From NCBI RefSeq assembly GCF_022846255.1, contig NZ_AP025682.1: a stretch of DNA of 64,000 bases, one strand, 5' to 3'. The notes under the pieces are model-generated. The model was given only the letters and a program-made list of their open reading frames with translations. It was not told the origin of the DNA and made no database searches. Source of the DNA: Escherichia coli. GTDB taxonomy: Bacteria > Pseudomonadota > Gammaproteobacteria > Enterobacterales > Enterobacteriaceae. The position numbers were made by a program, and so were the translations under genes. This document shows positions 9,488-54,117 of this stretch, one piece after another. Positions within the stretch are counted from its first letter, which is position 1. Each line of letters opens with the position of its first letter.

Positions 9488-9892
9488 AATCAAATAGCCT
9501 ACGCAATGTAGGCTTAATGATTCGTCTGAGTTATATTACGGGGCGTTTTTTTAATGCCCCGCTTTACATATATTTGCATTAATAAAATAATTGTAATTAT
9601 AAGGTTAAATATCGGTAATTTGTATTTAATAAATACGATCGATATTGTTACTTTATTCGCCAGGTGCTCCCTTTTAATTAACTGTTTTAGCGGAGGATGC
9701 GGAAAAAATTCAACTCATTTGTTAATTTTTAAAATTTATTTTTATTTGGATAATCAAATATTTACTCCGTATTTGCATAAAAACCATGCGAGTTACGGGC
9801 CTATAAGCCAGGCGAGATATGATCTATATCAATTTCTCATCTATAATGCTTTGTTAGTATCTCGTCGCCGACTTAATAAAGAGAGAGTTAGT

Positions 9893-10804: not shown

Positions 10805-13087
10805 ATGTCCGAGCTTAATGAAAAGTTAGCCACAGCCTGGGAAGGTTTTACCAAAGGTGACTGGCAGAATGAAGTAAACGTCCGTGACTTCATTCAGAAA
10901 AACTACACTCCGTACGAGGGTGACGAGTCCTTCCTGGCTGGCGCTACTGAAGCGACCACCACCCTGTGGGACAAAGTAATGGAAGGCGTTAAACTGGAAA
11001 ACCGCACTCACGCGCCAGTTGACTTTGACACCGCTGTTGCTTCCACCATCACCTCTCACGACGCTGGCTACATCAACAAAGCGTTGGAAAAAGTTGTTGG
11101 TCTGCAGACTGAAGCTCCGCTGAAACGTGCTCTTATCCCGTTCGGTGGTATCAAAATGATCGAAGGTTCCTGCAAAGCGTACAACCGCGAACTGGACCCG
11201 ATGATCAAAAAAATCTTCACTGAATACCGTAAAACTCACAACCAGGGCGTGTTCGACGTTTACACTCCGGACATCCTGCGTTGCCGTAAATCCGGTGTTC
11301 TGACCGGTCTGCCAGATGCTTATGGCCGTGGTCGTATCATCGGTGACTACCGTCGCGTTGCGCTGTACGGTATCGACTATCTGATGAAAGACAAATACGC
11401 TCAGTTCACCTCTCTGCAGGCTGATCTGGAAAACGGCGTAAACCTGGAACAGACTATCCGTCTGCGCGAAGAAATCGCTGAACAGCACCGCGCTCTGGGT
11501 CAGATGAAAGAAATGGCTGCGAAATACGGCTACGACATCTCTGGTCCGGCTACCAACGCTCAGGAAGCTATCCAGTGGACTTACTTCGGCTACCTGGCTG
11601 CTGTTAAGTCTCAGAACGGTGCTGCAATGTCCTTCGGTCGTACCTCCACCTTCCTGGATGTGTACATCGAACGTGACCTGAAAGCTGGCAAGATCACCGA
11701 ACAAGAAGCGCAGGAAATGGTTGACCACCTGGTCATGAAACTGCGTATGGTTCGCTTCCTGCGTACTCCGGAATACGATGAACTGTTCTCTGGCGACCCG
11801 ATCTGGGCAACCGAATCTATCGGTGGTATGGGCCTCGACGGTCGTACCCTGGTTACCAAAAACAGCTTCCGTTTCCTGAACACCCTGTACACCATGGGTC
11901 CGTCTCCGGAACCGAACATGACCATTCTGTGGTCCGAAAAACTGCCGCTGAACTTCAAGAAATTCGCTGCTAAAGTGTCCATCGACACCTCTTCTCTGCA
12001 GTATGAGAACGATGACCTGATGCGTCCGGACTTCAACAACGATGACTACGCTATCGCTTGCTGCGTAAGCCCGATGATCGTTGGTAAACAAATGCAGTTC
12101 TTCGGTGCGCGTGCAAACCTGGCGAAAACCATGCTGTACGCAATCAACGGCGGCGTTGACGAAAAACTGAAAATGCAGGTTGGTCCGAAGTCTGAGCCGA
12201 TCAAAGGCGATCTCCTGAACTACGATGAAGTGATGGAGCGCATGGATCACTTCATGGACTGGCTGGCTAAACAGTACATCACTGCACTGAACATCATCCA
12301 CTACATGCACGACAAGTACAGCTACGAAGCCTCTCTGATGGCGCTGCACGACCGTGACGTTATCCGCACCATGGCGTGTGGTATCGCTGGTCTGTCCGTT
12401 GCTGCTGACTCCCTGTCTGCAATCAAATATGCGAAAGTTAAACCGATTCGTGACGAAGACGGTCTGGCTATCGACTTCGAAATCGAAGGCGAATACCCGC
12501 AGTTTGGTAACAACGATCCGCGTGTAGATGACCTGGCTGTTGACCTGGTAGAACGTTTCATGAAGAAAATTCAGAAACTGCACACCTACCGTGACGCTAT
12601 CCCGACTCAGTCTGTTCTGACCATCACTTCTAACGTTGTGTATGGTAAGAAAACTGGTAACACCCCAGACGGTCGTCGTGCTGGCGCGCCGTTCGGACCG
12701 GGTGCTAACCCGATGCACGGTCGTGACCAGAAAGGTGCAGTAGCCTCTCTGACTTCCGTTGCTAAACTGCCGTTTGCTTACGCTAAAGATGGTATCTCCT
12801 ACACCTTCTCTATCGTTCCGAACGCACTGGGTAAAGACGACGAAGTTCGTAAGACCAACCTGGCTGGTCTGATGGATGGTTACTTCCACCACGAAGCGTC
12901 CATCGAAGGTGGTCAGCACCTGAACGTTAACGTGATGAACCGTGAAATGCTGCTCGACGCGATGGAAAACCCGGAAAAATATCCGCAGCTGACCATCCGT
13001 GTATCTGGCTACGCAGTACGTTTCAACTCGCTGACTAAAGAACAGCAGCAGGACGTTATTACTCGTACCTTCACTCAATCTATGTAA
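10805..13087 (+). CDS. pflB: Pyruvate formate-lyase (formate C-acetyltransferase 1)
   Basis: 760-aa [32 protein letters not shown]..., C-terminal glycyl-radical motif RVSGYAV. Confidence 0.97.
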
Positions 13088-26900: not shown

Positions 26901-27992
26901 TACAGGCTGCCAGGCTACTGTAGGTTGCGCAGGTGGAACATCAACAGAGGCAACAGGCGGCGTCTGAGTCACAGGTTCAACCGGTGCAGCCCAGCTTTGC
27001 GTCGCCGTGGTAGCAGCAGCTGCTACAGCAACAGGTTCGGTAATTGGCGCACCGTTTAATAATGGATCGTACTCGTCATATTCTGGCTGCGTTGCACGAT
27101 TGCCCGAAAAGAGGACGTCGTCAGGGTCGGCAGCCACACCGCGTGCAGTGTAGGTAATCTCTTCGTCATCATCCATCCGCTTACCGGAGAACAACGCAGC
27201 GTCTGTTTGCCGCCCCATCGGATTAATGAATTTTTCCGCCAACCGTTTACGACGCGCTAGCGCGCCGCGAAGAATACGGGCACGGCGTGATTCATGCTGT
27301 TTGCCGTGACTTTCATCTTCTTCATATTCTTCGTCGTCTTCATACTCATCTTCATCGACCCAGGTATCATCGCGACGGGTACGATTACTGGCGAAGGTAA
27401 GAATATTTAAAATCCAGCCGCCGAGTTTTTCAGCAATGGTCACCCATGACCAACCGGTGAACAGCGTCAGGCCCGCTGCCCAAACGCAGAGCAGTGCAAT
27501 AGTTCCCCCGCTACTGTGTAGCAGTGGTTGTAGCGTAGTGCTCAGTAAGCTGCCAATGACGCCACCGGAGGCAAAATACCAGATATCGTCAGCGTTGATT
27601 GCCGCCAGACCACAGGAGGTAAGGATGAGCGCCAAAACGCCAATGATGCGTAGCGAAACGGCAAAATAATCAATGTATTCGTCGCTGGACTGATGACGCC
27701 AGGCAAACCAACAACCGCCGACAATAATGACGGGAATGGTGTAAGCCATCACGCCAAAAATAAAGAACAGCGTATCTGCCAGCCATGCACCGGGCATCCC
27801 ACCTAAATTATGGATAGGTTCATGCCAGGCCGTTTGCGACCAGCTGGGGTCCGAAGGGTTAAAGCTTAGTAAGGCAGCCATCAACCAGACGGCAAACAGG
27901 ACAATAAGGATCAGCAACGCCTCCAGAAGGCGGCGTCCGCTACTTAACTTTGTCAATGTGACTTCTTTGTCTTCAGTGTATTCCTGGCTCAA
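23922..27992 (-). CDS. ftsK: DNA translocase FtsK
   Basis: 1356-aa ORF: N-terminal membrane domain, long Pro/Gln-rich linker, C-terminal motor with Walker A GTTGSGKS. Confidence 0.96.
25462..25745 (-). repeat. In-frame tandem repeat (about 39-bp unit, about 7 copies) encoding the [13 protein letters not shown] linker repeats of FtsK
   Basis: near-identical tactgcggctgcggcgcaactggctgttgtggctgctga units visible on plus strand. Confidence 0.85.
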
Positions 27993-29047: not shown

Positions 29048-30130
<1,083 letters not shown>

Positions 30131-30252
30131 TTTTACAAATCAGTAACAAAAGTAAAGAAGGCGACACCATGCGACTATGGGTCGCCTTTATTTTTTCCTC
30201 GTTGTAACATTGCTCTGCAAATAATTCTGATAACTCACCTGCTAAGCGTGCA

Positions 30253-35102: not shown

Positions 35103-36152
35103 TTTGAAAACTGCCTGTACGGCAGTGAACAGCGCCCGCTTTTTTACCGCGTCAGCGCAGCGTTTCTAAGCTGCCTGTACGGCAGTGAACTCCCTGATTC
35201 AGTTGCGCTCCCCGACGAGCTGTTTCTAAGCTGCCTGTACGGCAGTGAACCGTTGGCGTTTCGCGGCAACAGGTTTTTCAATTTTCTAAGCTGCCTGTAC
35301 GGCAGTGAACGTAGTTTTGATTCCAGCGATAACTGCCTATTTATTTCTAAGCTGCCTGTACGGCAGTGAACGTAGTTTTGATTCCAGCGATAACTGCCTA
35401 TTTATTTCTAAGCTGCCTGTACGGCAGTGAACGATCAGGCCCGGCTTTCCCCACACGTTCGTATTTTCTAAGCTGCCTGTACGGCAGTGAACCGCCTGCC
35501 ATTCAACCTGCAAATAGTTTTCGATTTCTAAGCTGCCTGTACGGCAGTGAACGAACTGTGGCACGAGGTTGCAGGCGTAAGACTTTTCTAAGCTGCCTGT
35601 ACGGCAGTGAACGCCATCTTTGAATATAACGCCCCGATTGTGATTTTCTAAGCTGCCTGTACGGCAGTGAACCCCTACCGTTTTAATAAATGGGATTTGC
35701 ATTATTTCTAAGCTGCCTGTACGGCAGTGAACGCTGAGGTGTTTACAATGCGTGCCGTGCTGGTTTTCTAAGCTGCCTGTACGGCAGTGAACTCTGTTTT
35801 TCGTCAGCAGGATTAAACCAGGCATTTCTAAGCTGCCTGTACGGCAGTGAACTCTCATCAATTACGGGTTCGTTGGCTGGATCTTTTCTAAGCTGCCTGT
35901 ATGGCAGTGAACGTCTTCTGCGCATCCGTACCACTCACCAATGATTTCTAAGCTGCCTGTATGGCAGTGAACTTAATCGGTAACGTTGCTCTAATTCCCC
36001 CTCTTTTCTAAGCTGCCTGTATGGCAGTGAACCCAGCGAGAATTGAGGCTGTTTGCCGTGTGCTTTTCTAAGCTGCCTGTATGGCAGTGAACATAAACGC
36101 GCGCAGGTTGTTGAGGTGCTCGAGTTTCTAAGCTGCCTGTATGGCAGTGAAC
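35103..36152 (-). CRISPR. Type I-F CRISPR array A: 18 repeats, 17 spacers (16 unique)
   Basis: 28-bp repeat (RNA sense on minus strand GTTCACTGCCGTACAGGCAGCTTAGAAA) at 60-61 bp period with 32-33 bp spacers; degenerate terminal repeat at 35103..35130; five repeats at 35885..36152 carry a loop variant. Confidence 0.97.
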
Positions 36153-36423
36153 TGGAATAATAGCAGACTATCCGATTGATTTACTGTTAAAACTTACAAA
36201 ATCGCAGATTCAAACCCTTTTTCCAGACTTCAAAACAGAAATAAACAAAATCAATGAGTTACATTTCGCCCTAAAAAAAGGGTCGATTTGGTATTTCTTC
36301 AATCTCATATTTTCTGCATAGCTTTTGATAAACAATTGACCAGAACACATACGGTCATAATCTCCGTCCCGCGAACAGCGTGTTCATTGCGTAACCAAAC
36401 AAATCAATCTATATAAATTCTTC

Positions 36424-36452
36424 TTGACCGTTTCACTCCAACTCCCTATAGT
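36424..36452 (+). promoter_or_regulatory. Putative sigma-70 promoter of tRNA-Ser
   Basis: TTGACC - 17 bp - TATAGT followed by GC-rich discriminator (agcgcccc), about 40 nt upstream of the tRNA. Confidence 0.55.
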
Positions 36453-36495
36453 AGCGCCCCGTTGCCACCTATGAGGTCTGGCAGCAAAACAATTT

Positions 36496-36583
36496 GGTGA
36501 GGTGTCCGAGTGGCTGAAGGAGCACGCCTGGAAAGTGTGTATACGGCAACGTATCCGGGGTTCGAATCCCCGCCTCACCGCCA
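36496..36583 (+). tRNA. serW: tRNA-Ser (anticodon GGA)
   Basis: 88-nt sequence GGTGAGGTGTCCGAGTGGCTGAAGG...TTCGAATCCCCGCCTCACCGCCA with long variable arm and encoded CCA. Confidence 0.93.
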
Positions 36584-36594
36584 TCTTTAAAGAA

Positions 36595-36626
36595 GAGCTC
36601 GTACGAAAGTACGGGCTTTTTTTTCG
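36595..36626 (+). terminator. Rho-independent terminator after tRNA-Ser
   Basis: gagctcgtac-gaaa-gtacgggc hairpin followed by TTTTTTTT. Confidence 0.7.
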
Positions 36627-36704
36627 CATTGATGCACCTTAAATAAAAAACACGTACTTCCTCTTCGAAAGTACGTGAAAATCAGTGGCTGATTACCATA
36701 CCCA

Positions 36705-37718
36705 CTAGTCGTAGGATACGGCAAATATGGCTTTGCTTTGGACTTCTCCAGGCTGTAGTGCTTCCTCCTTCACGCGGACATATTTCGCGGTAATCGGGAA
36801 GGTGTACTGATTCTCAATGGCCGCCATTTTAGTTAGTTTGTTCATCAGAGTATCACCCAGCTTTAACGGTGTTGTTGCGTTACCATTATAAATCTGGAAC
36901 CCAACCCCCTTAGCACCATTAAGCGATGTGTTTTTCAGAATGGTTCCACTATCATCCCATTCACCGCGCGCAACTTTAAAAGTCACTGGATTAGTCGTGA
37001 CGTTATAAACACTGTCACAATTTAAAACCAGATCTATAGAACCTGATTTCGTGTTATTGGCAGATTGCATCTCACTTACCGTTGTTTCTGGCATTCTTAT
37101 TTCGTAAATCGGTTGCGAAAAACTACAGGTTGTGGGTTTGTGTTTGATGCTAAATTCTATATTCTGAGTGTAAGAAACATCACTATTTAGTCGCCCAGTA
37201 ACCCAACATAAAAGCCATGATATGATATTATTATTGCAAGAGTTATCTGTTAGTATGCTAATAGCGGGGCGCGGGATGGTTATCTTGTCGATATTGGTGG
37301 TTATAGTATGGTCTACTTTACTCGTTGGCCCAACATATTCTGCCTTAAGAGTGAACGGTTTGGTATTTATCACATCCTGAGTGTTATATTCTTTTGGAGA
37401 AGCACCCAAGGAGTCAGTTCCAGTAGAAACAGGAAAACTACTACTCTCAAGGTTAAATTTCATAAAAATTGATTTCCCCGAATCCGACTCTCTAAGTTCA
37501 ACGATATAATCTTTTAACGGTGTTGCATAATACATTTTATCGCTTGCTGCATTACATGTGAACGTATCGACTAAGTTTGTATGAATTACAGCCGTTACCG
37601 TATCTTGTGCCATATCCAGTTCTATCGTTTGGCTTGCTGTTGTATTAGGCCCCAAGGTACATTTAGCCTGCCCCAAAAAAGGCAAAGCCAGTAAAAACAA
37701 AAACCAATATTTCTTCAT
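36705..37718 (-). CDS. Fimbrial adhesin / minor tip subunit (chaperone-usher pilus)
   Basis: ORF 36705..37739 (TTG-initiated in the track); likely ATG start at MKKYWFLFLLALPFLGQA signal peptide; last gene of the operon; AT-rich codon usage. Confidence 0.6.
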   Translation of the reverse strand: MKKYWFLFLLALPFLGQAKCTLGPNTTASQTIELDMAQDTVTAVIHTNLVDTFTCNAASDKMYYATPLKDYIVELRESDSGKSIFMKFNLESSSFPVSTGTDSLGASPKEYNTQDVINTKPFTLKAEYVGPTSKVDHTITTNIDKITIPRPAISILTDNSCNNNIISWLLCWVTGRLNSDVSYTQNIEFSIKHKPTTCSFSQPIYEIRMPETTVSEMQSANNTKSGSIDLVLNCDSVYNVTTNPVTFKVARGEWDDSGTILKNTSLNGAKGVGFQIYNGNATTPLKLGDTLMNKLTKMAAIENQYTFPITAKYVRVKEEALQPGEVQSKAIFAVSYD

Positions 37719-37729
37719 AAACAAATCCT

Positions 37730-40222
37730 TTAACGACAAATATAAACTTTATTCTCATCAATAACGTTATCAAAGGTAATAGTGCAGAATTGTTCCTGCT
37801 GTTTATTAACCGAGACGCGAATCGACGCGGGAACATCATTGGTGCGAATAAATATCCGACTTCCCTGTCCTACTAAGCCCACATTATTGCCACTTTCATC
37901 TTCAACCTCATAACCAAACGGCAACGGAGAGCCATCAGGTCGTTGGGAGATGAAATACCAGGGCTTGCGTTTATCAGTCTCAAACTGCGTCATCACTACC
38001 GCACCACGATAAGGAACGGTGTTTTTACGGTTACCCAGTAGCGCCACATCGCTTTTACTGTCGGCAATATCCAACATCAACGTATTTTCACGATACGGCG
38101 TCAGGTTGTCATAAATAGCGTAGCCTCTGCTATCCGTGGTCAAGTAACGATATCCCTGCACCGCAGCCCCCTCCAGCCCAGGTGCTTTGACAATGGCAAA
38201 CGTATCGGAAAGTCTGGGAGCCAGTGCCACCCCGTCCGACCACGCGACGAAACCGCCTTGAATATTACCGCTAACCTGTTGATATCTTTTCGACTGGCTA
38301 TAGCTGCCACCAATAGTCGCCAATGGCGCACGCCAGGTCAGGTTTCCACCTGCTGTTGTTTCGCTGCCCTGGTGTTGATGGCTCAAGTTTGCCCCGTAGC
38401 TGAACTGATCGCGGCTCCCCGCTACACCGCTGAGGCTGGTATTATTCGACCGATAGCCGTCTTTATCAAAAGTGGTCGAGTTAGAAACAAATAAATCTCG
38501 TCGTTTTTCAGTGATTCCATCGCCCCACGAGAAGGGAATTGAGAAATATAAGTTAATGCGTCTATCTTCGCGGTTATCTTCGTCGTAGGTCTGGCTAACA
38601 GACAAGGTATAACTAAGGCGTTCCCAGGAGTTCGAATAGCTGAGTTGATAATCTTTCCCTGTCCCGCTGCGTTCCCAATAATCCCGCCATTGACCGCTGA
38701 CCGACAGATATCCCCAATTTTCCGGTAATGACTGGTTTATATTTACAGAAAAGCTGTTCTTACGACCAAAATCGTACTGATAATAGTCGGCGATATCATA
38801 AACTGAGTCATCTTCTCGATTATAACTTTTCCTGTTATTTGCCCTCACGTGATCGTTAAAAGTACGATAATCTCGAGAAGAATAACGCCAGGCCGCCAGC
38901 GAAAATTGCGTTCCACTTTGAGAGAGATATTTGTTCCACGCAATCTGATAACTTTGACCATTAAACACATCACCGTTATCTTGTTCACTGTGGGAATGGG
39001 TAAAATCAACAGATACCGCACCAATCGGTGTATTCCATCCCGTGCCGAGAACAAACGATGAGTAATTATCAGACAACTGCGTGCCAGCATAGAGAGTCAG
39101 CAAATTATTAAGGCCATACTGATAGCTTCCCTGAATAAAATCTGACTGATCGCTGGCTCCCTCAATACGGCTACGTCCGACAGCAAATTCATATTTCGAA
39201 ACGCCCGGTTGCAACATATTTGGTACCGATGAATAAGGTACACGATAACGCGACACCGAACCGTCAGCTTCTTTAACGGTAACTTCCAGATCGGCACCAC
39301 CACCTGCAAGTTGCAAATCATCAATGGCGAATGGACCTGGCGGAACTTCTTTCTGGTAAACCACAAAGCCATTTTGTTCGATAGTGACAAGTGCGTTACT
39401 TTGGGCAACACCACGCACCACAGGCGTAAAATTCTGTTTAGAGTTCGGCAACATCTGCATATCGCGCCAAAGGCGTACACCGCGAAAACGCACGGAGTCA
39501 AAAACATCAGAACCGGTATACATTTCACCAGCACGCAATGTGCCAAGAATATGTGGAATTCCGCGCTCCAGATATAACGTGTTACTCTTCCATTTACCGC
39601 TGTTATCGTCACTTTTCGTATAATTGGCATTTGAATGCAACTGCCAGCCCAGCAGATTCAAACCACTATTCAGATTTAAATAGCTACTTTTATTATCTCC
39701 TCCGTGCTTATAATTACTGTAATACTGACTGGCATAATAAGAAGTATATAATGCGTTAATCCCACGATCCCATGCCTCAGGTGGAACATATCCGCGTTCA
39801 TACTCAACAACATAGGCCTGGGGTACACTCAACTTCAGGTTAAAATGCCCAATATCATAGTCAACGCTACCTCCCTGTACTGCATCCCGAAGAGGTACGC
39901 ATTCTACGCCTTTATCAATATTAATTCCTTCAGTGAGGATACCTATTTGCTTTAACTGCTCCCAAGATAAACATGTCGCATCCGGATCATCTTTAATGTC
40001 GACATTATAGTGTCCGCGCCACTGATTATTCAGGTAAACATCCATATCATAGATACCTGGCATCGGCTTATCACTATCAATATGATAGTCAGAAATTTTT
40101 TCCCCATTTAATCCGCCAATCATAAAATGGGTGTCAAATGTTTCATCTTCCGCCCATGCAAGCGACGTTGCCAACACCGACAGGATAGCCAGCGTAATAG
40201 AATTAAGTTTAGACATAATCAA
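37730..40222 (-). CDS. Fimbrial outer-membrane usher protein
   Basis: 830-aa ORF, size and composition typical of FimD/PapC ushers, between chaperone and adhesin. Confidence 0.85.
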   Translation of the reverse strand: MIMSKLNSITLAILSVLATSLAWAEDETFDTHFMIGGLNGEKISDYHIDSDKPMPGIYDMDVYLNNQWRGHYNVDIKDDPDATCLSWEQLKQIGILTEGINIDKGVECVPLRDAVQGGSVDYDIGHFNLKLSVPQAYVVEYERGYVPPEAWDRGINALYTSYYASQYYSNYKHGGDNKSSYLNLNSGLNLLGWQLHSNANYTKSDDNSGKWKSNTLYLERGIPHILGTLRAGEMYTGSDVFDSVRFRGVRLWRDMQMLPNSKQNFTPVVRGVAQSNALVTIEQNGFVVYQKEVPPGPFAIDDLQLAGGGADLEVTVKEADGSVSRYRVPYSSVPNMLQPGVSKYEFAVGRSRIEGASDQSDFIQGSYQYGLNNLLTLYAGTQLSDNYSSFVLGTGWNTPIGAVSVDFTHSHSEQDNGDVFNGQSYQIAWNKYLSQSGTQFSLAAWRYSSRDYRTFNDHVRANNRKSYNREDDSVYDIADYYQYDFGRKNSFSVNINQSLPENWGYLSVSGQWRDYWERSGTGKDYQLSYSNSWERLSYTLSVSQTYDEDNREDRRINLYFSIPFSWGDGITEKRRDLFVSNSTTFDKDGYRSNNTSLSGVAGSRDQFSYGANLSHQHQGSETTAGGNLTWRAPLATIGGSYSQSKRYQQVSGNIQGGFVAWSDGVALAPRLSDTFAIVKAPGLEGAAVQGYRYLTTDSRGYAIYDNLTPYRENTLMLDIADSKSDVALLGNRKNTVPYRGAVVMTQFETDKRKPWYFISQRPDGSPLPFGYEVEDESGNNVGLVGQGSRIFIRTNDVPASIRVSVNKQQEQFCTITFDNVIDENKVYICR

Positions 40223-40230
40223 TCCCTGAT

Positions 40231-40911
40231 CTATTTGACGGTTTTTACTTTTTCACTCAAATAGTTCCCATGGTCATCAATCAGCGTAATTGTATATTGA
40301 TTGATGGCTAAGGCTGTGGTGATAGTCTTATCTGACCAGGGGGCTAATAACAACGTTTCGTGATTTATTTTTCCACTTCCCATCAACTCAGGAATAGTTA
40401 TCCAGTTTGCGGAGTTGTTTTTGATATTAATACCACCATTGGCATGCTTAATGCTCAGACGACGAAAACTTTCTTTATCTACGCCAGTAAGTCCCTCTGG
40501 GCGGTAGATAAATTTAATACGATTCTGCATGGCGAATTTTATGCCATTCTTATCTTCTAATTCGGGGCAATTAGGTGGGATGTCTAGCACATTAAGGAAG
40601 AATAGGCTTTCGCGATCTTTTGGTAGTGTATTCGCCAATTTTTTGATTTTGAGTTGTTGCCCTTCCCCCCCTTTTACGTGAGCGACCGGTGGCGTCAACA
40701 CAAACGGAACATGAATTTTTTCTGGGGGTAGACTGGTATCGCCATCATCAATCCATGACTGAACCAGGGCGCTACGATTACCTTCATTCATTAACTGAAC
40801 GGTAATCTCTTTTTTCTTTTCTGGATAAATAACACGAGTGCCGTAGATATAGACACCACTCCACGCAGGCGTGACTATGCCGGCCAGCAAGAAGGCTATT
40901 AATTTTTTCAT
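40231..40911 (-). CDS. Periplasmic pilus chaperone (PapD/FimC-like)
   Basis: 226-aa ORF with signal peptide MKKLIAFLLAGIVTPAWSG and chaperone-like N-terminal region. Confidence 0.8.
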   Translation of the reverse strand: MKKLIAFLLAGIVTPAWSGVYIYGTRVIYPEKKKEITVQLMNEGNRSALVQSWIDDGDTSLPPEKIHVPFVLTPPVAHVKGGEGQQLKIKKLANTLPKDRESLFFLNVLDIPPNCPELEDKNGIKFAMQNRIKFIYRPEGLTGVDKESFRRLSIKHANGGINIKNNSANWITIPELMGSGKINHETLLLAPWSDKTITTALAINQYTITLIDDHGNYLSEKVKTVK

Positions 40912-40964
40912 TAAACAATCCTTGTTTGAGAAATCGGCGACCGAAGCCGCCGATAAACACGATA

Positions 40965-41513
40965 TTAATCTGTCACGACAGTCATTGTCAGAGCAGAGTT
41001 AACCGGGCCAGCAGTCACCGCATCACCTGATTGCGCGTATTTCGCACTGAAATTTAGTGTATATTCATTAGAGCTGTTTTTTTCTAACTCAATACTTTTA
41101 TCACCGTCAATCTGTTGAGATTGCCCATCTGCACTCTCATAGTAGACAGCAAAACCAGCACCATTTGGGTTTGCCACAGTATTAATGGTGATATCGCTAC
41201 GATTTGCATCAAACTGACTTCTGGAAAACGTAATTCTGGGAGTCTCATCTCCTGTACATTTGACCGTCAGCGGTACAGTTGTTTTATTTGAATAACCATC
41301 ATAAATATAACCAGCGCTCTTACCATCAAATTGATCAGCACCAATATCGTTCATAGCAATAGTAGCCTGGCTATTTCCGATAAATTGACAAGTAGTTCCA
41401 ACCACATTACCGGTAATAACTAACTCACCCTGTTCACTCCCCTCCTCTGCAAAAGCCCCTGCACTCATAAAAAGAGAAGATAATACTGCAACTGCAATAA
41501 TTGAACGTTTCAT
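40965..41513 (-). CDS. Major fimbrial subunit
   Basis: 182-aa ORF with signal peptide and Thr/Ser/Gly-rich pilin-like composition; first gene of the operon, preceded by about 380 bp of AT-rich DNA. Confidence 0.75.
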   Translation of the reverse strand: MKRSIIAVAVLSSLFMSAGAFAEEGSEQGELVITGNVVGTTCQFIGNSQATIAMNDIGADQFDGKSAGYIYDGYSNKTTVPLTVKCTGDETPRITFSRSQFDANRSDITINTVANPNGAGFAVYYESADGQSQQIDGDKSIELEKNSSNEYTLNFSAKYAQSGDAVTAGPVNSALTMTVVTD

Positions 41514-41841
41514 AGTCTATTCCTTAACTAATTTATTCCAGGTGATCAAGAGTCTTTTTCCTCTCGGAAATGAATTTCGCAAATTACATTTTCTATCGCA
41601 ATGTAAACAATTTGTTTTTGTGATTTAAATCAAATTATCAAAAGCATATAACAAACAAAAACATCTACAAAAAATATTTTCCTTGTTTACTATTCGGCAT
41701 TATTTGATGTCTTTGCAAGGTAAATTAATACGTATAATTAATTGTGGTTTTTTATTTTAAATAAACATCCGCATACTGATAAAAGTGTAGGGCATTGAAT
41801 TATTTATTCTATTTCCAGCCAGAAATAGGCTTTTCAATAGA

Positions 41842-41874
41842 CAAAAAGACCTGACAGCAAGGCCAGGTCTTTTA
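41842..41874 (-). terminator. Terminator downstream of cas6f (bidirectional shape)
   Basis: gacctg-N10-caggtc hairpin flanked by A-run and T-run. Confidence 0.6.
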
Positions 41875-41892
41875 TACATTACAACTTACTAA

Positions 41893-42447
41893 TCAAAACC
41901 AGGGAATAGTGGCGGTTGCGCTTAATCCGTAACTACTAAATTCCCCTTTAACCGGTTCAGTAAGCAAATCACCATGACGGATAAACAGCTTGAACTGCTG
42001 CTGACTCGACAAACTATTCATATTAAGAAAGGGTAAATCGGTCCGCTGTTCAGCCTGCGTCGCCAGTCGCTCAATCGCCTGTTCTTCAGTTAGCCAGCCT
42101 TTTTTCACTGAACGCCTTAACAGACGCTGAGGGTTACTTTTTACCTGTACACGACTTACGACTCGCCAGCCTTTAATTTCAGGTACTAGCGTGACAGGCG
42201 AACATTGGCAGTAATCAGTAAGCCCTTTACGCCACGTAGAGGCTTCAAGTTCTTGCAATGCGGGGGCACTGCCGTGCAAGCGTAAACGCGCTCCCGGCGT
42301 AACATTCACGTCCGGGAAACTCACGCCGATATCACCTTGCCCTCTTGCACCTAATGCCCGATGCAATTTGGCAAATAACGCCGCCATCAACATTTCGCTC
42401 GAAAATTCAGGATCTGGCAGAACGCGGATCTCAAGGTAGTGATCCAT
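41893..42447 (-). CDS. cas6f: Type I-F CRISPR endoribonuclease Cas6f (Csy4)
   Basis: ORF 41893..42489; start placed at MDHYLEIRVLPDPEF; last gene of cas operon. Confidence 0.9.
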   Translation of the reverse strand: MDHYLEIRVLPDPEFSSEMLMAALFAKLHRALGARGQGDIGVSFPDVNVTPGARLRLHGSAPALQELEASTWRKGLTDYCQCSPVTLVPEIKGWRVVSRVQVKSNPQRLLRRSVKKGWLTEEQAIERLATQAEQRTDLPFLNMNSLSSQQQFKLFIRHGDLLTEPVKGEFSSYGLSATATIPWF

Positions 42448-50400: not shown

Positions 50401-51268
50401 ATTATCGTATTGTGAAACTACCTGTACGGCAGTGAACCGCGTAGAGCTGCTGCGCAAACTCGACACTCATTTCTAAGCTGCCTGTACGGCAGTGAACCCT
50501 CGTTCATCAAGGTGCTCAAAGCTTGACATTTTCTAAGCTGCCTGTACGGCAGTGAACGCCAAGAACGCTGTTACCGCTTCCCTGTGCGCTTTCTAAGCTG
50601 TCTGTACGGCAGTGAACCCAGATTGCCGAAAACATCGCCTTTGATGAACTTTCTAAGCTGCCTGTACGGCAGTGAACGGGCGCGGTGTCGTCCAGGATTT
50701 GGAGGCAACTTTCTAAGCTGCCTGTACGGCAGTGAACAACAGGTCGTCCAGCGCATCCCACGGATCCGGTTTCTAAGCTGCCTGTACGGCAGTGAACATC
50801 GCGCACACGCAGTCTTACATTTGCCACCATTTCTAAGCTGCCTGTACGGCAGTGAACGAGTGATTATTATGGCCCAATCGGACGATGACTTTCTAAGCTG
50901 CCTGTACGGCAGTGAACCTCCACCCGTGGTAAGCAGAAAGGGCCGTAACTTTCTAAGCTGCCTGTACGGCAGTGAACTGATCTGTTGCGATACTGACAGT
51001 ATCGTTAGCTTTCTAAGCTGCCTGTACGGCAGTGAACTGTTTTTTTGACGTGTAAACCGGGCGGTTTTTTTTCTAAGCTGCCTGTACGGCAGTGAACATC
51101 TCCGTATTTACTGTCCTCCCTGCTATCCATTTCTAAGCTGCCTGTACGGCAGTGAACTGCCAGTTTCGAAAACGTGCAGCAAATGCAGTTTTCTAAGCTG
51201 CCTGTACGGCAGTGAACTACCTTAATTTGAAATGAACCTTTGCCGCATATTTCTAAGCTGCCTGTACG
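50401..51268 (-). CRISPR. Type I-F CRISPR array B: 15 repeats, 14 spacers
   Basis: same 28-bp repeat at exact 60-bp period, 32-bp spacers; degenerate terminal repeat at 50401..50428 next to cas1; repeat at 50581 has a stem substitution. Confidence 0.97.
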
Positions 51269-51431
51269 GCAGTGAACTCAAATACTACACGTTTAGCTCG
51301 TTGTTGATAAAGAAAAATCATCTCATTTTCCTGCTGCCACCCTTTTTTATTCTTACCTTCCAGCACCATTAATTATCAACAACTTACCTTCACCTCCAAA
51401 AATAGGGTTTTCACCGTTCCCCCCTACAAAC

Positions 51432-53796: not shown

Positions 53797-54117
53797 TCAG
53801 GCTTTTTCTAGCGTACACAGCAATGGATGCTCATTCTCCCTCGCGTACTTGTTCACCATCGCCACTTTGGTTTCTGCAACCTCAGCGGTAAAGACTCCGC
53901 AAATGGCCTTCCCCTGGTAGTGAACAGCGAGCATCAATTGCGTTGCACGTTCTACATCATAAGAAAAGAATTTTTGTAACACGTCAATAACAAACTCCAT
54001 CGGAGTATAATCATCATTGACTAATATCACTTTATACATAGATGGCGGTTTTAGCGCGTCGCGAACTTTTTCTTCCGCCAGTTGATCAAAGTCCAGCCAG
54101 TCGTTCGTTTTACCCAT
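53797..54117 (-). CDS. clpS: ClpA adaptor protein ClpS
   Basis: 106-aa [46 protein letters not shown]... Confidence 0.96.

Follow-up and report, generated by a model that had tools for sequence, protein, structure and literature searches.

The 64,000-nucleotide stretch of Escherichia coli DNA analysed here (contig NZ_AP025682.1, hereafter the window, in whose coordinates all positions are given unless a locus is named) carries on its minus strand, in the clpA-infA interval, a complete type I-F CRISPR-Cas locus composed of an array (50470-51277), cas1, cas2/3, csy1-3 and cas6f. Immediately after cas6f lies the subject of this study, an AT-rich gap of 379 bp (41514-41892) that, according to the open reading frame (ORF) calls, extends from the cas6f stop codon (TGA, 41893-41895) to the ATG of a fimbrial major-subunit gene (starting at 41513), both on the minus strand. 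Beyond the gap follow the fimbrial operon (36705-41513, minus strand), serW on the plus strand (36496-36584), a leader and a second array (35103-36152), and the genes adjoining the gap are all either cas or fimbrial. The cas6f gene (csy4; 41893-42447, minus strand, ATG at 42447), which is the last of the csy1-cas6f unit and bounds the gap upstream, matches TIGR02563 cas_Csy4 at 183.6 bits, and its 184-aa product was also called in loci L005-L024 of our comparison. The backbone of the window is that of E. coli, as judged from the 98.9% identity of cydDC-aat, and the cas6f region shares 96.9% nucleotide identity with cas6f/csy3 of E. coli, the homology stopping at the stop codon. The distance between cas6f and serW is 112 bp in the I-F loci of E. 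coli, and compared to these loci window positions ~36625-41843 form an extra 5.2-kb module comprising the operon's own terminator (36645-36677), its four genes and the AT-rich region.

The gap has a GC content of 28.5% (27.3% without the terminator found in it) as compared to 49.9% for the window. Stretches of 379 bp taken throughout the window have a mean GC of 0.499 with a standard deviation of 0.048, which places the gap ~4.5 standard deviations below the mean and makes it the lowest in the 64 kb. It contains 13 A/T tracts of at least 4 nt; the part lying beyond the terminator (41514-41843) has 11, against 7.2 +/- 2.3 in composition-matched shuffles, and since 41 of 500 shuffles also reach 11, the surplus of tracts over composition is mild.

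The operon downstream of the gap encodes, in this order, a major subunit (40965-41513), a chaperone (40231-40911), an usher (37730-40222) and a tip adhesin (36705-37739). The major subunit scored 226.6 bits with the NCBIfam YehD equivalog model (cut-off 136), the chaperone 393.8 bits with PRK15218 (cut-off 372) and the usher 1500 bits with PRK15217 (cut-off 933); compared with the K-12 proteins, the chaperone is 54% identical to YehC, the usher 65% to the N-terminal half of YehB and the major subunit 34% to YehD. The presence of a yehD-type major subunit directly downstream of the gap and the gene order are thus those of the Yeh family. The operon does not occupy the canonical apbC-yehE-yehD position, exemplified by loci L004, L016 and L018, but sits between cas6f and serW with no yehE upstream, and is therefore a paralogous locus and not the yeh locus itself. 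Its sequence adds it to the Yeh/Yhl/Stc (gamma-4) group, as another member located away from the canonical site. The PDB holds adhesin domains of both Yeh and Yhl (PMC12778044); the tip adhesin found no sequence match in the PDB, so that the operon can be equated with neither of them.

The major subunit itself is hypervariable, with 55-71% identity among cas-adjacent alleles. Between the window and the allele found in an IS1-bounded unit described below, this protein is only 55% identical although the operons are ~94% identical in DNA, and the flanking DNA, the upstream region and the signal peptide are all far better conserved than the mature subunit, which suggests diversifying selection or allele exchange at this gene. 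In Escherichia sp. E1V33 (L014 4001-4546) the longest major-subunit ORF covers 129 aa although tblastn matches residues 1-182, and this copy may be a pseudogene.

Homology searches divided the gap into two halves. The promoter-proximal block (41520-41661, minus strand) has homologues in front of yehD in E. coli K-12, Citrobacter freundii and Salmonella: it aligns with the K-12 yehD upstream sequence at 73.6% identity over 142 bp (E 2e-10) and was detected by distant BLAST in more than 4,400 E. coli genomes. We aligned 11 upstream regions, namely those of eight cas-adjacent loci and of the canonical K-12, C. freundii and Salmonella yehD genes. An invariant block is seen on the coding strand at 41634-41597 and reads TT(A/G)AATCA-NN-AA(A/G)ACA-N3/4-TGTTTACATTGCG. 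It is followed by ~13 variable nucleotides, T.TG.GAA(A/T)TT, a hairpin that is short and lacks significance, TTAAGGAA, and then the start codon with signal-peptide codons that are conserved as well. Both TAAGGAA (41526-41520), which is the ribosome-binding site, and the ATG (41513-41511), which together span 41511-41526 on the minus strand, are invariant in all 11 homologues, and the features shared across Escherichia, Citrobacter and Salmonella are the invariant TGTTTACATTGCG and TTAAATCA, this ribosome-binding site and the signal-peptide codons. Judged by this conservation, 41520-41661 is the presumptive functional core of the control region.

The initial annotation of this DNA had described a 380-bp, very AT-rich fimbrial control region upstream of the major subunit and adjacent to the cas terminator. 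The exact coordinates, the base composition, the terminator 19 nt past cas6f and the homology of the proximal 140 bp to yehD upstream DNA all bear this description out. The gap resembles the upstream regions of K-12 yehDCBA, Salmonella stc and their Citrobacter counterpart in this proximal segment, in its ribosome-binding site and signal-peptide codons, in the invariant TTAAATCA..AAAACA..TGTTTACATTGCG, in being very AT-rich (26-32% GC) and in preceding the same four-gene order. It differs from canonical yeh loci in its genomic position, in its distal 180 bp, which are unrelated, and in the divergence of the encoded proteins, including an adhesin that by sequence matches neither the solved Yeh nor the solved Yhl adhesin domain.

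The distal half (41662-41843, minus strand) is shared only by cas-adjacent operons, canonical yehD having nothing comparable upstream; in E. coli, distant BLAST found it only in copies of the IS1 unit. Apart from a marginal alignment of the terminator, BLAST detected no relatives of it in the rest of the window, including the CRISPR leaders, or in the E. coli I-F and K-12 loci. Its promoter-like, SlyA-like and ArcA-like matches are weak and none exceeds chance: TTATCA-17-TAAAAT at 41782-41754 is not conserved in sister lineages, and an ArcA-like box at 41768 scores 10.8 bits, a value matched by 43% of shuffles. The distal half also contains TTTGCAAGGTAA at 41712-41723. Within it, the T-tract at 41669-41674 shows a T5/T6 length difference between the window, L007, L008, L010 and L011 on the one hand and L005 and L009 on the other, loci that are otherwise nearly identical; this difference is probably neutral.

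The best-defined element of the gap, absent from the initial annotation, is a block resembling an operator for ArcA-P. The invariant TTAAATCA..AAAACA...TGTTTACATTGCG of the coding (minus) strand falls within this predicted operator (41590-41634, given on the plus strand), which consists of direct repeats at 11-bp spacing and includes an 18-bp box, ATGTAAACAATTTGTTTT, at 41601-41618. In K-12, the published yehD ArcA site AAGTTGCCGCAATGTAAACACATTGTTTTATTGATTTAAAACA contains a 12.3-bit box and four direct repeats at 11-bp spacing (PMC3798270 Table S4), yehDCBA is derepressed 5.4-fold in an anaerobic arcA mutant (PMC3798270), and genomic SELEX (systematic evolution of ligands by exponential enrichment) placed YehD among the ArcA targets (PMC6134199). 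This published K-12 site is the reverse complement of the invariant block, 31 of 36 positions being identical over the repeats.

An ArcA matrix built from 115 published boxes (training range 9.6-21.5 bits, mean 15.7) returned 12.3 bits for the K-12 site, equal to the published value, and recovered the published cydD and focA boxes present in the window. With this matrix, 41601-41618 scored 14.1 bits and ranked 6th of ~128,000 positions in the 64 kb, and a box at the matching distance from the ATG (77 or 88 nt) scored 10-13.6 bits in 9 of the 10 other homologues. The arrangement is that of the multi-repeat ArcA-P operators described by Park et al. (2013), in which an 18-bp box has flanking 11-bp-spaced repeats, and, like most promoters repressed by ArcA, it overlaps or abuts the core promoter, here a candidate one; it differs from them in that the assignment here draws on orthology and on a matrix score that is by itself non-significant in such AT-rich DNA. 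The conserved block is the counterpart of the mapped K-12 ArcA-P operator, and the best model, by homology, is that control of yehDCBA in K-12 would apply here as well. The matrix also scored highly near clpS/clpA and trxB/lrp, the high-scoring sites of the window lying at 30132-30149, 9591-9608, 53976-53993 and 29070-29087, cydD and focA included, and so the window appears to be rich in ArcA-controlled promoters.

Two candidate promoters were retained next to this block, both on the minus strand. Candidate A (41573-41601) has a -35 TTGCGA (41601-41596), a 17-nt spacer and a -10 GAAATT (41578-41573), with a predicted start at ~41566; it has the best coding-strand matrix score (7.85, below the shuffle maximum of 8.9 +/- 1.6), and across the 11 homologues its hexamers are conserved and its spacer variable. 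Candidate B (41600-41629) has a -35 TTTAAA/TTAAAT (41629-41623), a spacer of 17 or 18 nt and an invariant -10 TACATT (41605-41600), with a predicted start at ~41593; it scores 4.9, lies wholly under the ArcA repeats, and its -35 to -10 stretch is the most conserved block of all. As the ArcA repeats overlap or abut the -35 of either candidate, repression by occlusion of the -35 fits A and B alike.

Other motifs of this segment were given less weight. A dyad resembling sites of the FNR/CRP family, TGTGATTTAAATCAAA (41619-41634, plus strand; minus-strand reading TTGAT-N4-ATCAC), shares bases with the outer ArcA repeat and is partly conserved. It has one mismatch to TGTGA-N6-TCACA, with two such sites in the 64 kb against 1.6 expected, and one to TTGAT-N4-ATCAA, and we regard it as secondary and speculative. 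Its reading as a CRP site was demoted, given that the canonical yeh homologues match poorly and that its bases belong to the published ArcA repeats. A sigma-54 promoter suspected by eye on the invariant TTGC was discarded for want of a GG 10 nt upstream. Consensus patterns for IHF, Lrp and Fis found no match in the region, and the 5'-leader hairpin (41547-41566) folds no better than shuffles, as does its K-12 counterpart.

Silencing by H-NS, proposed in the initial annotation from the AT tracts, has indirect support. The AT content is that of an H-NS-silenced promoter, the region having 27-28% GC and the operon 42% as compared to 50-51% for the backbone, values usual for H-NS substrates, and the K-12 homologue is bound by H-NS: yehDCBA is cryptic, showed H-NS binding in two genome-wide studies and was induced 3.6-fold by SlyA overproduction (PMC5797941), the gap between yehD and yehE counts among the 78 'promoter islands' bound by H-NS (PMC3661553), and the operon lies in a static domain of extended protein occupancy (bioRxiv 10.1101/2024.06.20.599902). 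Neither the H-NS motif nor phased A-tracts exceeded what composition predicts. With H-NS-bound 'promoter islands' and cryptic fimbrial operons (yad, sfm, elf/ycb and yeh) the gap shares an extreme AT stretch placed before an AT-rich, apparently horizontally mobile operon; it differs from them in that the density of promoter-like signals is within the range of shuffles and the high-affinity H-NS motif is unenriched. It is plausible, by analogy with K-12, that H-NS silences the region and the operon.

Taken together, these results lead us to propose, with good though not full confidence, that the gap serves as 5' regulatory region to a chaperone-usher operon of the Yeh family (gamma-4), with a weak sigma-70 promoter, silenced by H-NS, repressed by ArcA-P and separate from cas transcription. 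Under this proposal, a weak sigma-70 promoter within 41573-41629 would be kept silent under laboratory conditions by H-NS polymerising across both the region (27% GC) and the operon (42% GC), ArcA-P would bind the 11-bp-spaced repeats over or next to the -35 and add further repression at low oxygen, and anti-silencers such as SlyA would relieve H-NS. Expression would then be graded and condition-dependent rather than phase-variable, and transcriptionally apart from cas.

Several observations weigh against this proposal. As regards the promoter, neither a tool scan nor our own sigma-70 matrix found a sigma-70-like site above shuffled controls, and K-12 yehD is listed as having 'no TSS' (transcription start site; PMC3798270 Table S6). 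As regards H-NS, the motif TCGATAAATT occurs once with 2 mismatches against 1.2 expected and there is no 10-11 bp AA/TT phasing, although neither a high-affinity motif nor phased curvature is strictly required for H-NS binding; furthermore, loss of occupancy alone does not induce K-12 yehDCBA (bioRxiv 10.1101/2024.06.20.599902), and therefore a further activator may be needed. As regards ArcA, the K-12 yehD peak was obtained in only one of two replicates of chromatin immunoprecipitation sequencing (PMC3798270), the IS1-unit allele scores poorly at the box position, and 14.1 bits or more is reached in 10% of shuffles of the region, the matrix being itself AT-rich. Because of this AT-rich motif and of the frequency of such scores in shuffles, the case for ArcA is built on conservation across genera and on orthology with a bound site rather than on the score. 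Finally, the regulatory evidence is all transferred from the paralogous K-12 operon.

A different view of the locus, advanced in the initial annotation, is that silencing or antitermination close to the cas terminator couples the two neighbouring systems, and it is here that the terminator itself becomes informative. In this intrinsic terminator (41844-41873, minus strand), a stem of 12 pairs closes a loop of 6 nt and is followed by a T-run, TTTTTGTC, extending to 41836; the hairpin starts 19 nt beyond the cas6f stop and lies 330 bp upstream of the major-subunit ATG, and its fold reaches -16.7 kcal/mol (z -3.2). A GC-containing hairpin and TTTTT right after a stop codon are the features of a Rho-independent terminator, and because an A-run precedes the stem, it could stop transcription from the opposite direction too. 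The stem is nearly invariant in seven other loci, belonging to E. albertii, E. marmotae, E. whittamii, Escherichia sp. E1V33 and E. coli. A differing hairpin found after cas6f in E. coli I-F loci aligns with it at 74% over 42 bp (E 0.03), and because this alignment is marginal, the hairpin of the window can be assigned to the cas side with low certainty only.

In its broadest form, coupling would mean that the pairing of the I-F cas genes with Yeh fimbriae, which is conserved between E. albertii and E. coli, is functional and no accident, so that low-level terminator read-through or a shared regulator of the AT-rich region links adhesin to immunity and the AT-rich region served as the IS1 entry point to P1-like phage-plasmids; we hold this to be improbable, and if true it would tie adhesin production to the expression of an immune system. 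Very slightly less credible still is the narrower proposition that fimbrial expression depends on cas transcription, either by read-through or antitermination at the cas6f terminator or through a shared H-NS domain. The cas and fimbrial genes are indeed co-oriented and 379 bp apart, their neighbourhood is kept across the genus, and overproduction of SlyA in K-12 raises both casABC, which is of type I-E, and yehDCBA. However, the terminator is strong and has been retained in eight Escherichia lineages, expression of the csy1-cas6f unit is constitutive in E. coli LF82 (PMC3506596) and yeh operons are cryptic, and the cas operon, with a backbone-like GC content of 50.5%, is not an obvious H-NS target. 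Moreover, the control region stays with the fimbrial operon away from cas, in IS1 units as well as at canonical yeh loci, and neither the Rfam scan nor folding revealed an antiterminator-like RNA family or structure. The coupling envisaged in the initial annotation is thus not sustained.

We also considered, as a slim chance, that the gap hides a small gene, either for a regulatory RNA or for a short protein comparable to that of yehE (DUF2574), which lies upstream of yehD at canonical loci. The region does contain four ORFs of 21-40 aa. Against this, an Rfam scan of 36100-42100 gave no match in the region at E <= 1, the small ORFs lack conservation, the one of 40 aa overlapping the terminator and being interrupted in sister lineages by indels of 1 nt, and the predicted 5' leader folds no better than shuffles.

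Phase switches, whether by fim-type inversion, Pap-type Dam/Lrp control or slipped-strand mispairing at a homopolymer, are common among fimbrial operons, and the T5/T6 difference among near-identical loci might recall the last of these; we nevertheless find such a switch highly unlikely. A fim-type switch has inverted repeats of at least 9 bp flanking the promoter and a tyrosine recombinase gene nearby, and here a search for perfect inverted repeats of 10 nt or more yields the terminator alone, no recombinase gene is found nearby, and the region has a single orientation in all of at least 15 independent assemblies. The initial annotation had already judged inversion unsupported, having seen neither flanking repeats nor a recombinase gene, and had suggested a search for clusters of Dam GATC sites. 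A Pap-type switch has two GATC ~100 bp apart within Lrp sites, and we found a single one (41544), which is not conserved, reading AATC in sister lineages, and no match to the Lrp consensus, which argues against a Dam-type switch. As to slippage, ~100 nt separate this short T-tract from either candidate start downstream of it. The gap therefore resembles fimS and the pap switch in being an AT-rich control region placed before a major-subunit gene, and differs from them in having no inverted repeats, recombinase, paired GATC or Lrp motif. That the gap is a decayed CRISPR leader or array remnant, as might be imagined from its AT richness and its position right after cas6f, where an array directly follows in many type I-F loci, can practically be dismissed, for a leader adjoins the first repeat and resembles the other leaders of its system, and here there is no repeat-like sequence (up to 3 mismatches) in or near the region, the arrays lying at 35103-36152 and 50470-51277, no similarity to either leader in the window, serW instead of an array after cas6f in E. 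coli I-F loci, and homology to yehD upstream DNA instead.

Having set these alternatives aside, we retain the proposal of a separate, H-NS-silenced and ArcA-P-repressed regulatory region, and turn to the distribution of the arrangement to which it belongs. A contig scan with the major subunit gave only two loci, this subunit being hypervariable, and homologues were then collected through the protein database and exact-match look-ups. The succession of cas6f, ~380 bp of AT-rich DNA and a yehD-type operon was also present in E. albertii (L015), E. marmotae (L017), E. whittamii (L013) and Escherichia sp. E1V33 (L014), and the same order was found in several E. coli assemblies (L005-L012, L019, L021-L024). 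The cas6f-fimbrial junction occurs in 0 of 5,426 complete RefSeq E. coli genomes, and a fimbrial operon between cas6f and serW is mentioned neither in PMC3559732 nor in PMC3903273, which deal with E. coli fimbriae and E. coli CRISPR loci. In the window, the Yeh-family operon parts cas6f from the downstream array by 5.7 kb.

The AT-rich region also marks one end of a mobile unit. This unit, which is bounded by IS1 copies and corresponds to window 36527-41827, includes the fimbrial operon together with the final 58 nt of serW and ~310 bp of the AT-rich region, where its boundary lies at ~41827-41829. It is ~94% identical to the window, with copies at L001 5235-12148, L002 5235-12069 and in L020, and was detected, in chromosomes and plasmids of E. 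coli alike, in 20 complete genomes of this species and in 15 plasmids of PLSDB. Many of these plasmids belong to the P1-like phage-plasmids and carry ddrA, holin and tail-fibre genes next to the unit; the phage collection searched yielded no copy of the operon. The presence of part of serW shows that the unit derives from a chromosome arranged as in the window. In CP057686.1, a 768-bp IS1 lies within the AT-rich region (L006/L022 5919-6686) and serW is still intact, a single-IS1 state that is likely an intermediate toward the IS1-bounded unit. The 8-bp duplication GATTTCTG flanking this IS1 matches window positions 41820-41827, an IS1 target site that coincides with the end of the unit. In the same sequence, the last 20 nt of serW recur twice more (L022 11932-11951 and 12113-12132), ~181 bp apart and next to the intact tRNA gene (12295-12383); these copies resemble attachment-site duplications or a small tandem duplication.

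Two further observations concern other parts of the window. In the downstream array (35103-36152), the five leader-proximal repeats (35885-36152) share a G-to-A change (CCATAC) and the far-end repeat (35103) is degenerate, a pattern that fits recent acquisition of spacers with duplication of a first repeat already mutated. A 39-bp tandem repeat in 6.9 copies (25464-25733) lies inside an ORF of the size of ftsK (23922-27992) and is the expected ordinary repetitive linker of FtsK.

For the biology of these bacteria, the locus represents a third Yeh-family operon besides Yeh and Yhl, lodged within the clpA-infA CRISPR locus of several Escherichia species, and our analysis removes the link suggested between CRISPR-Cas and fimbriae. 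An IS1 insertion in its AT-rich DNA has made one end of a mobile fimbrial unit that is now carried on phage-plasmids. The 45-bp invariant core that Yeh-type operons share from Salmonella to Escherichia coincides with the predicted ArcA site, and offers a target for locating both the yehD promoter and the signal that turns on these pili of gut colonisation.

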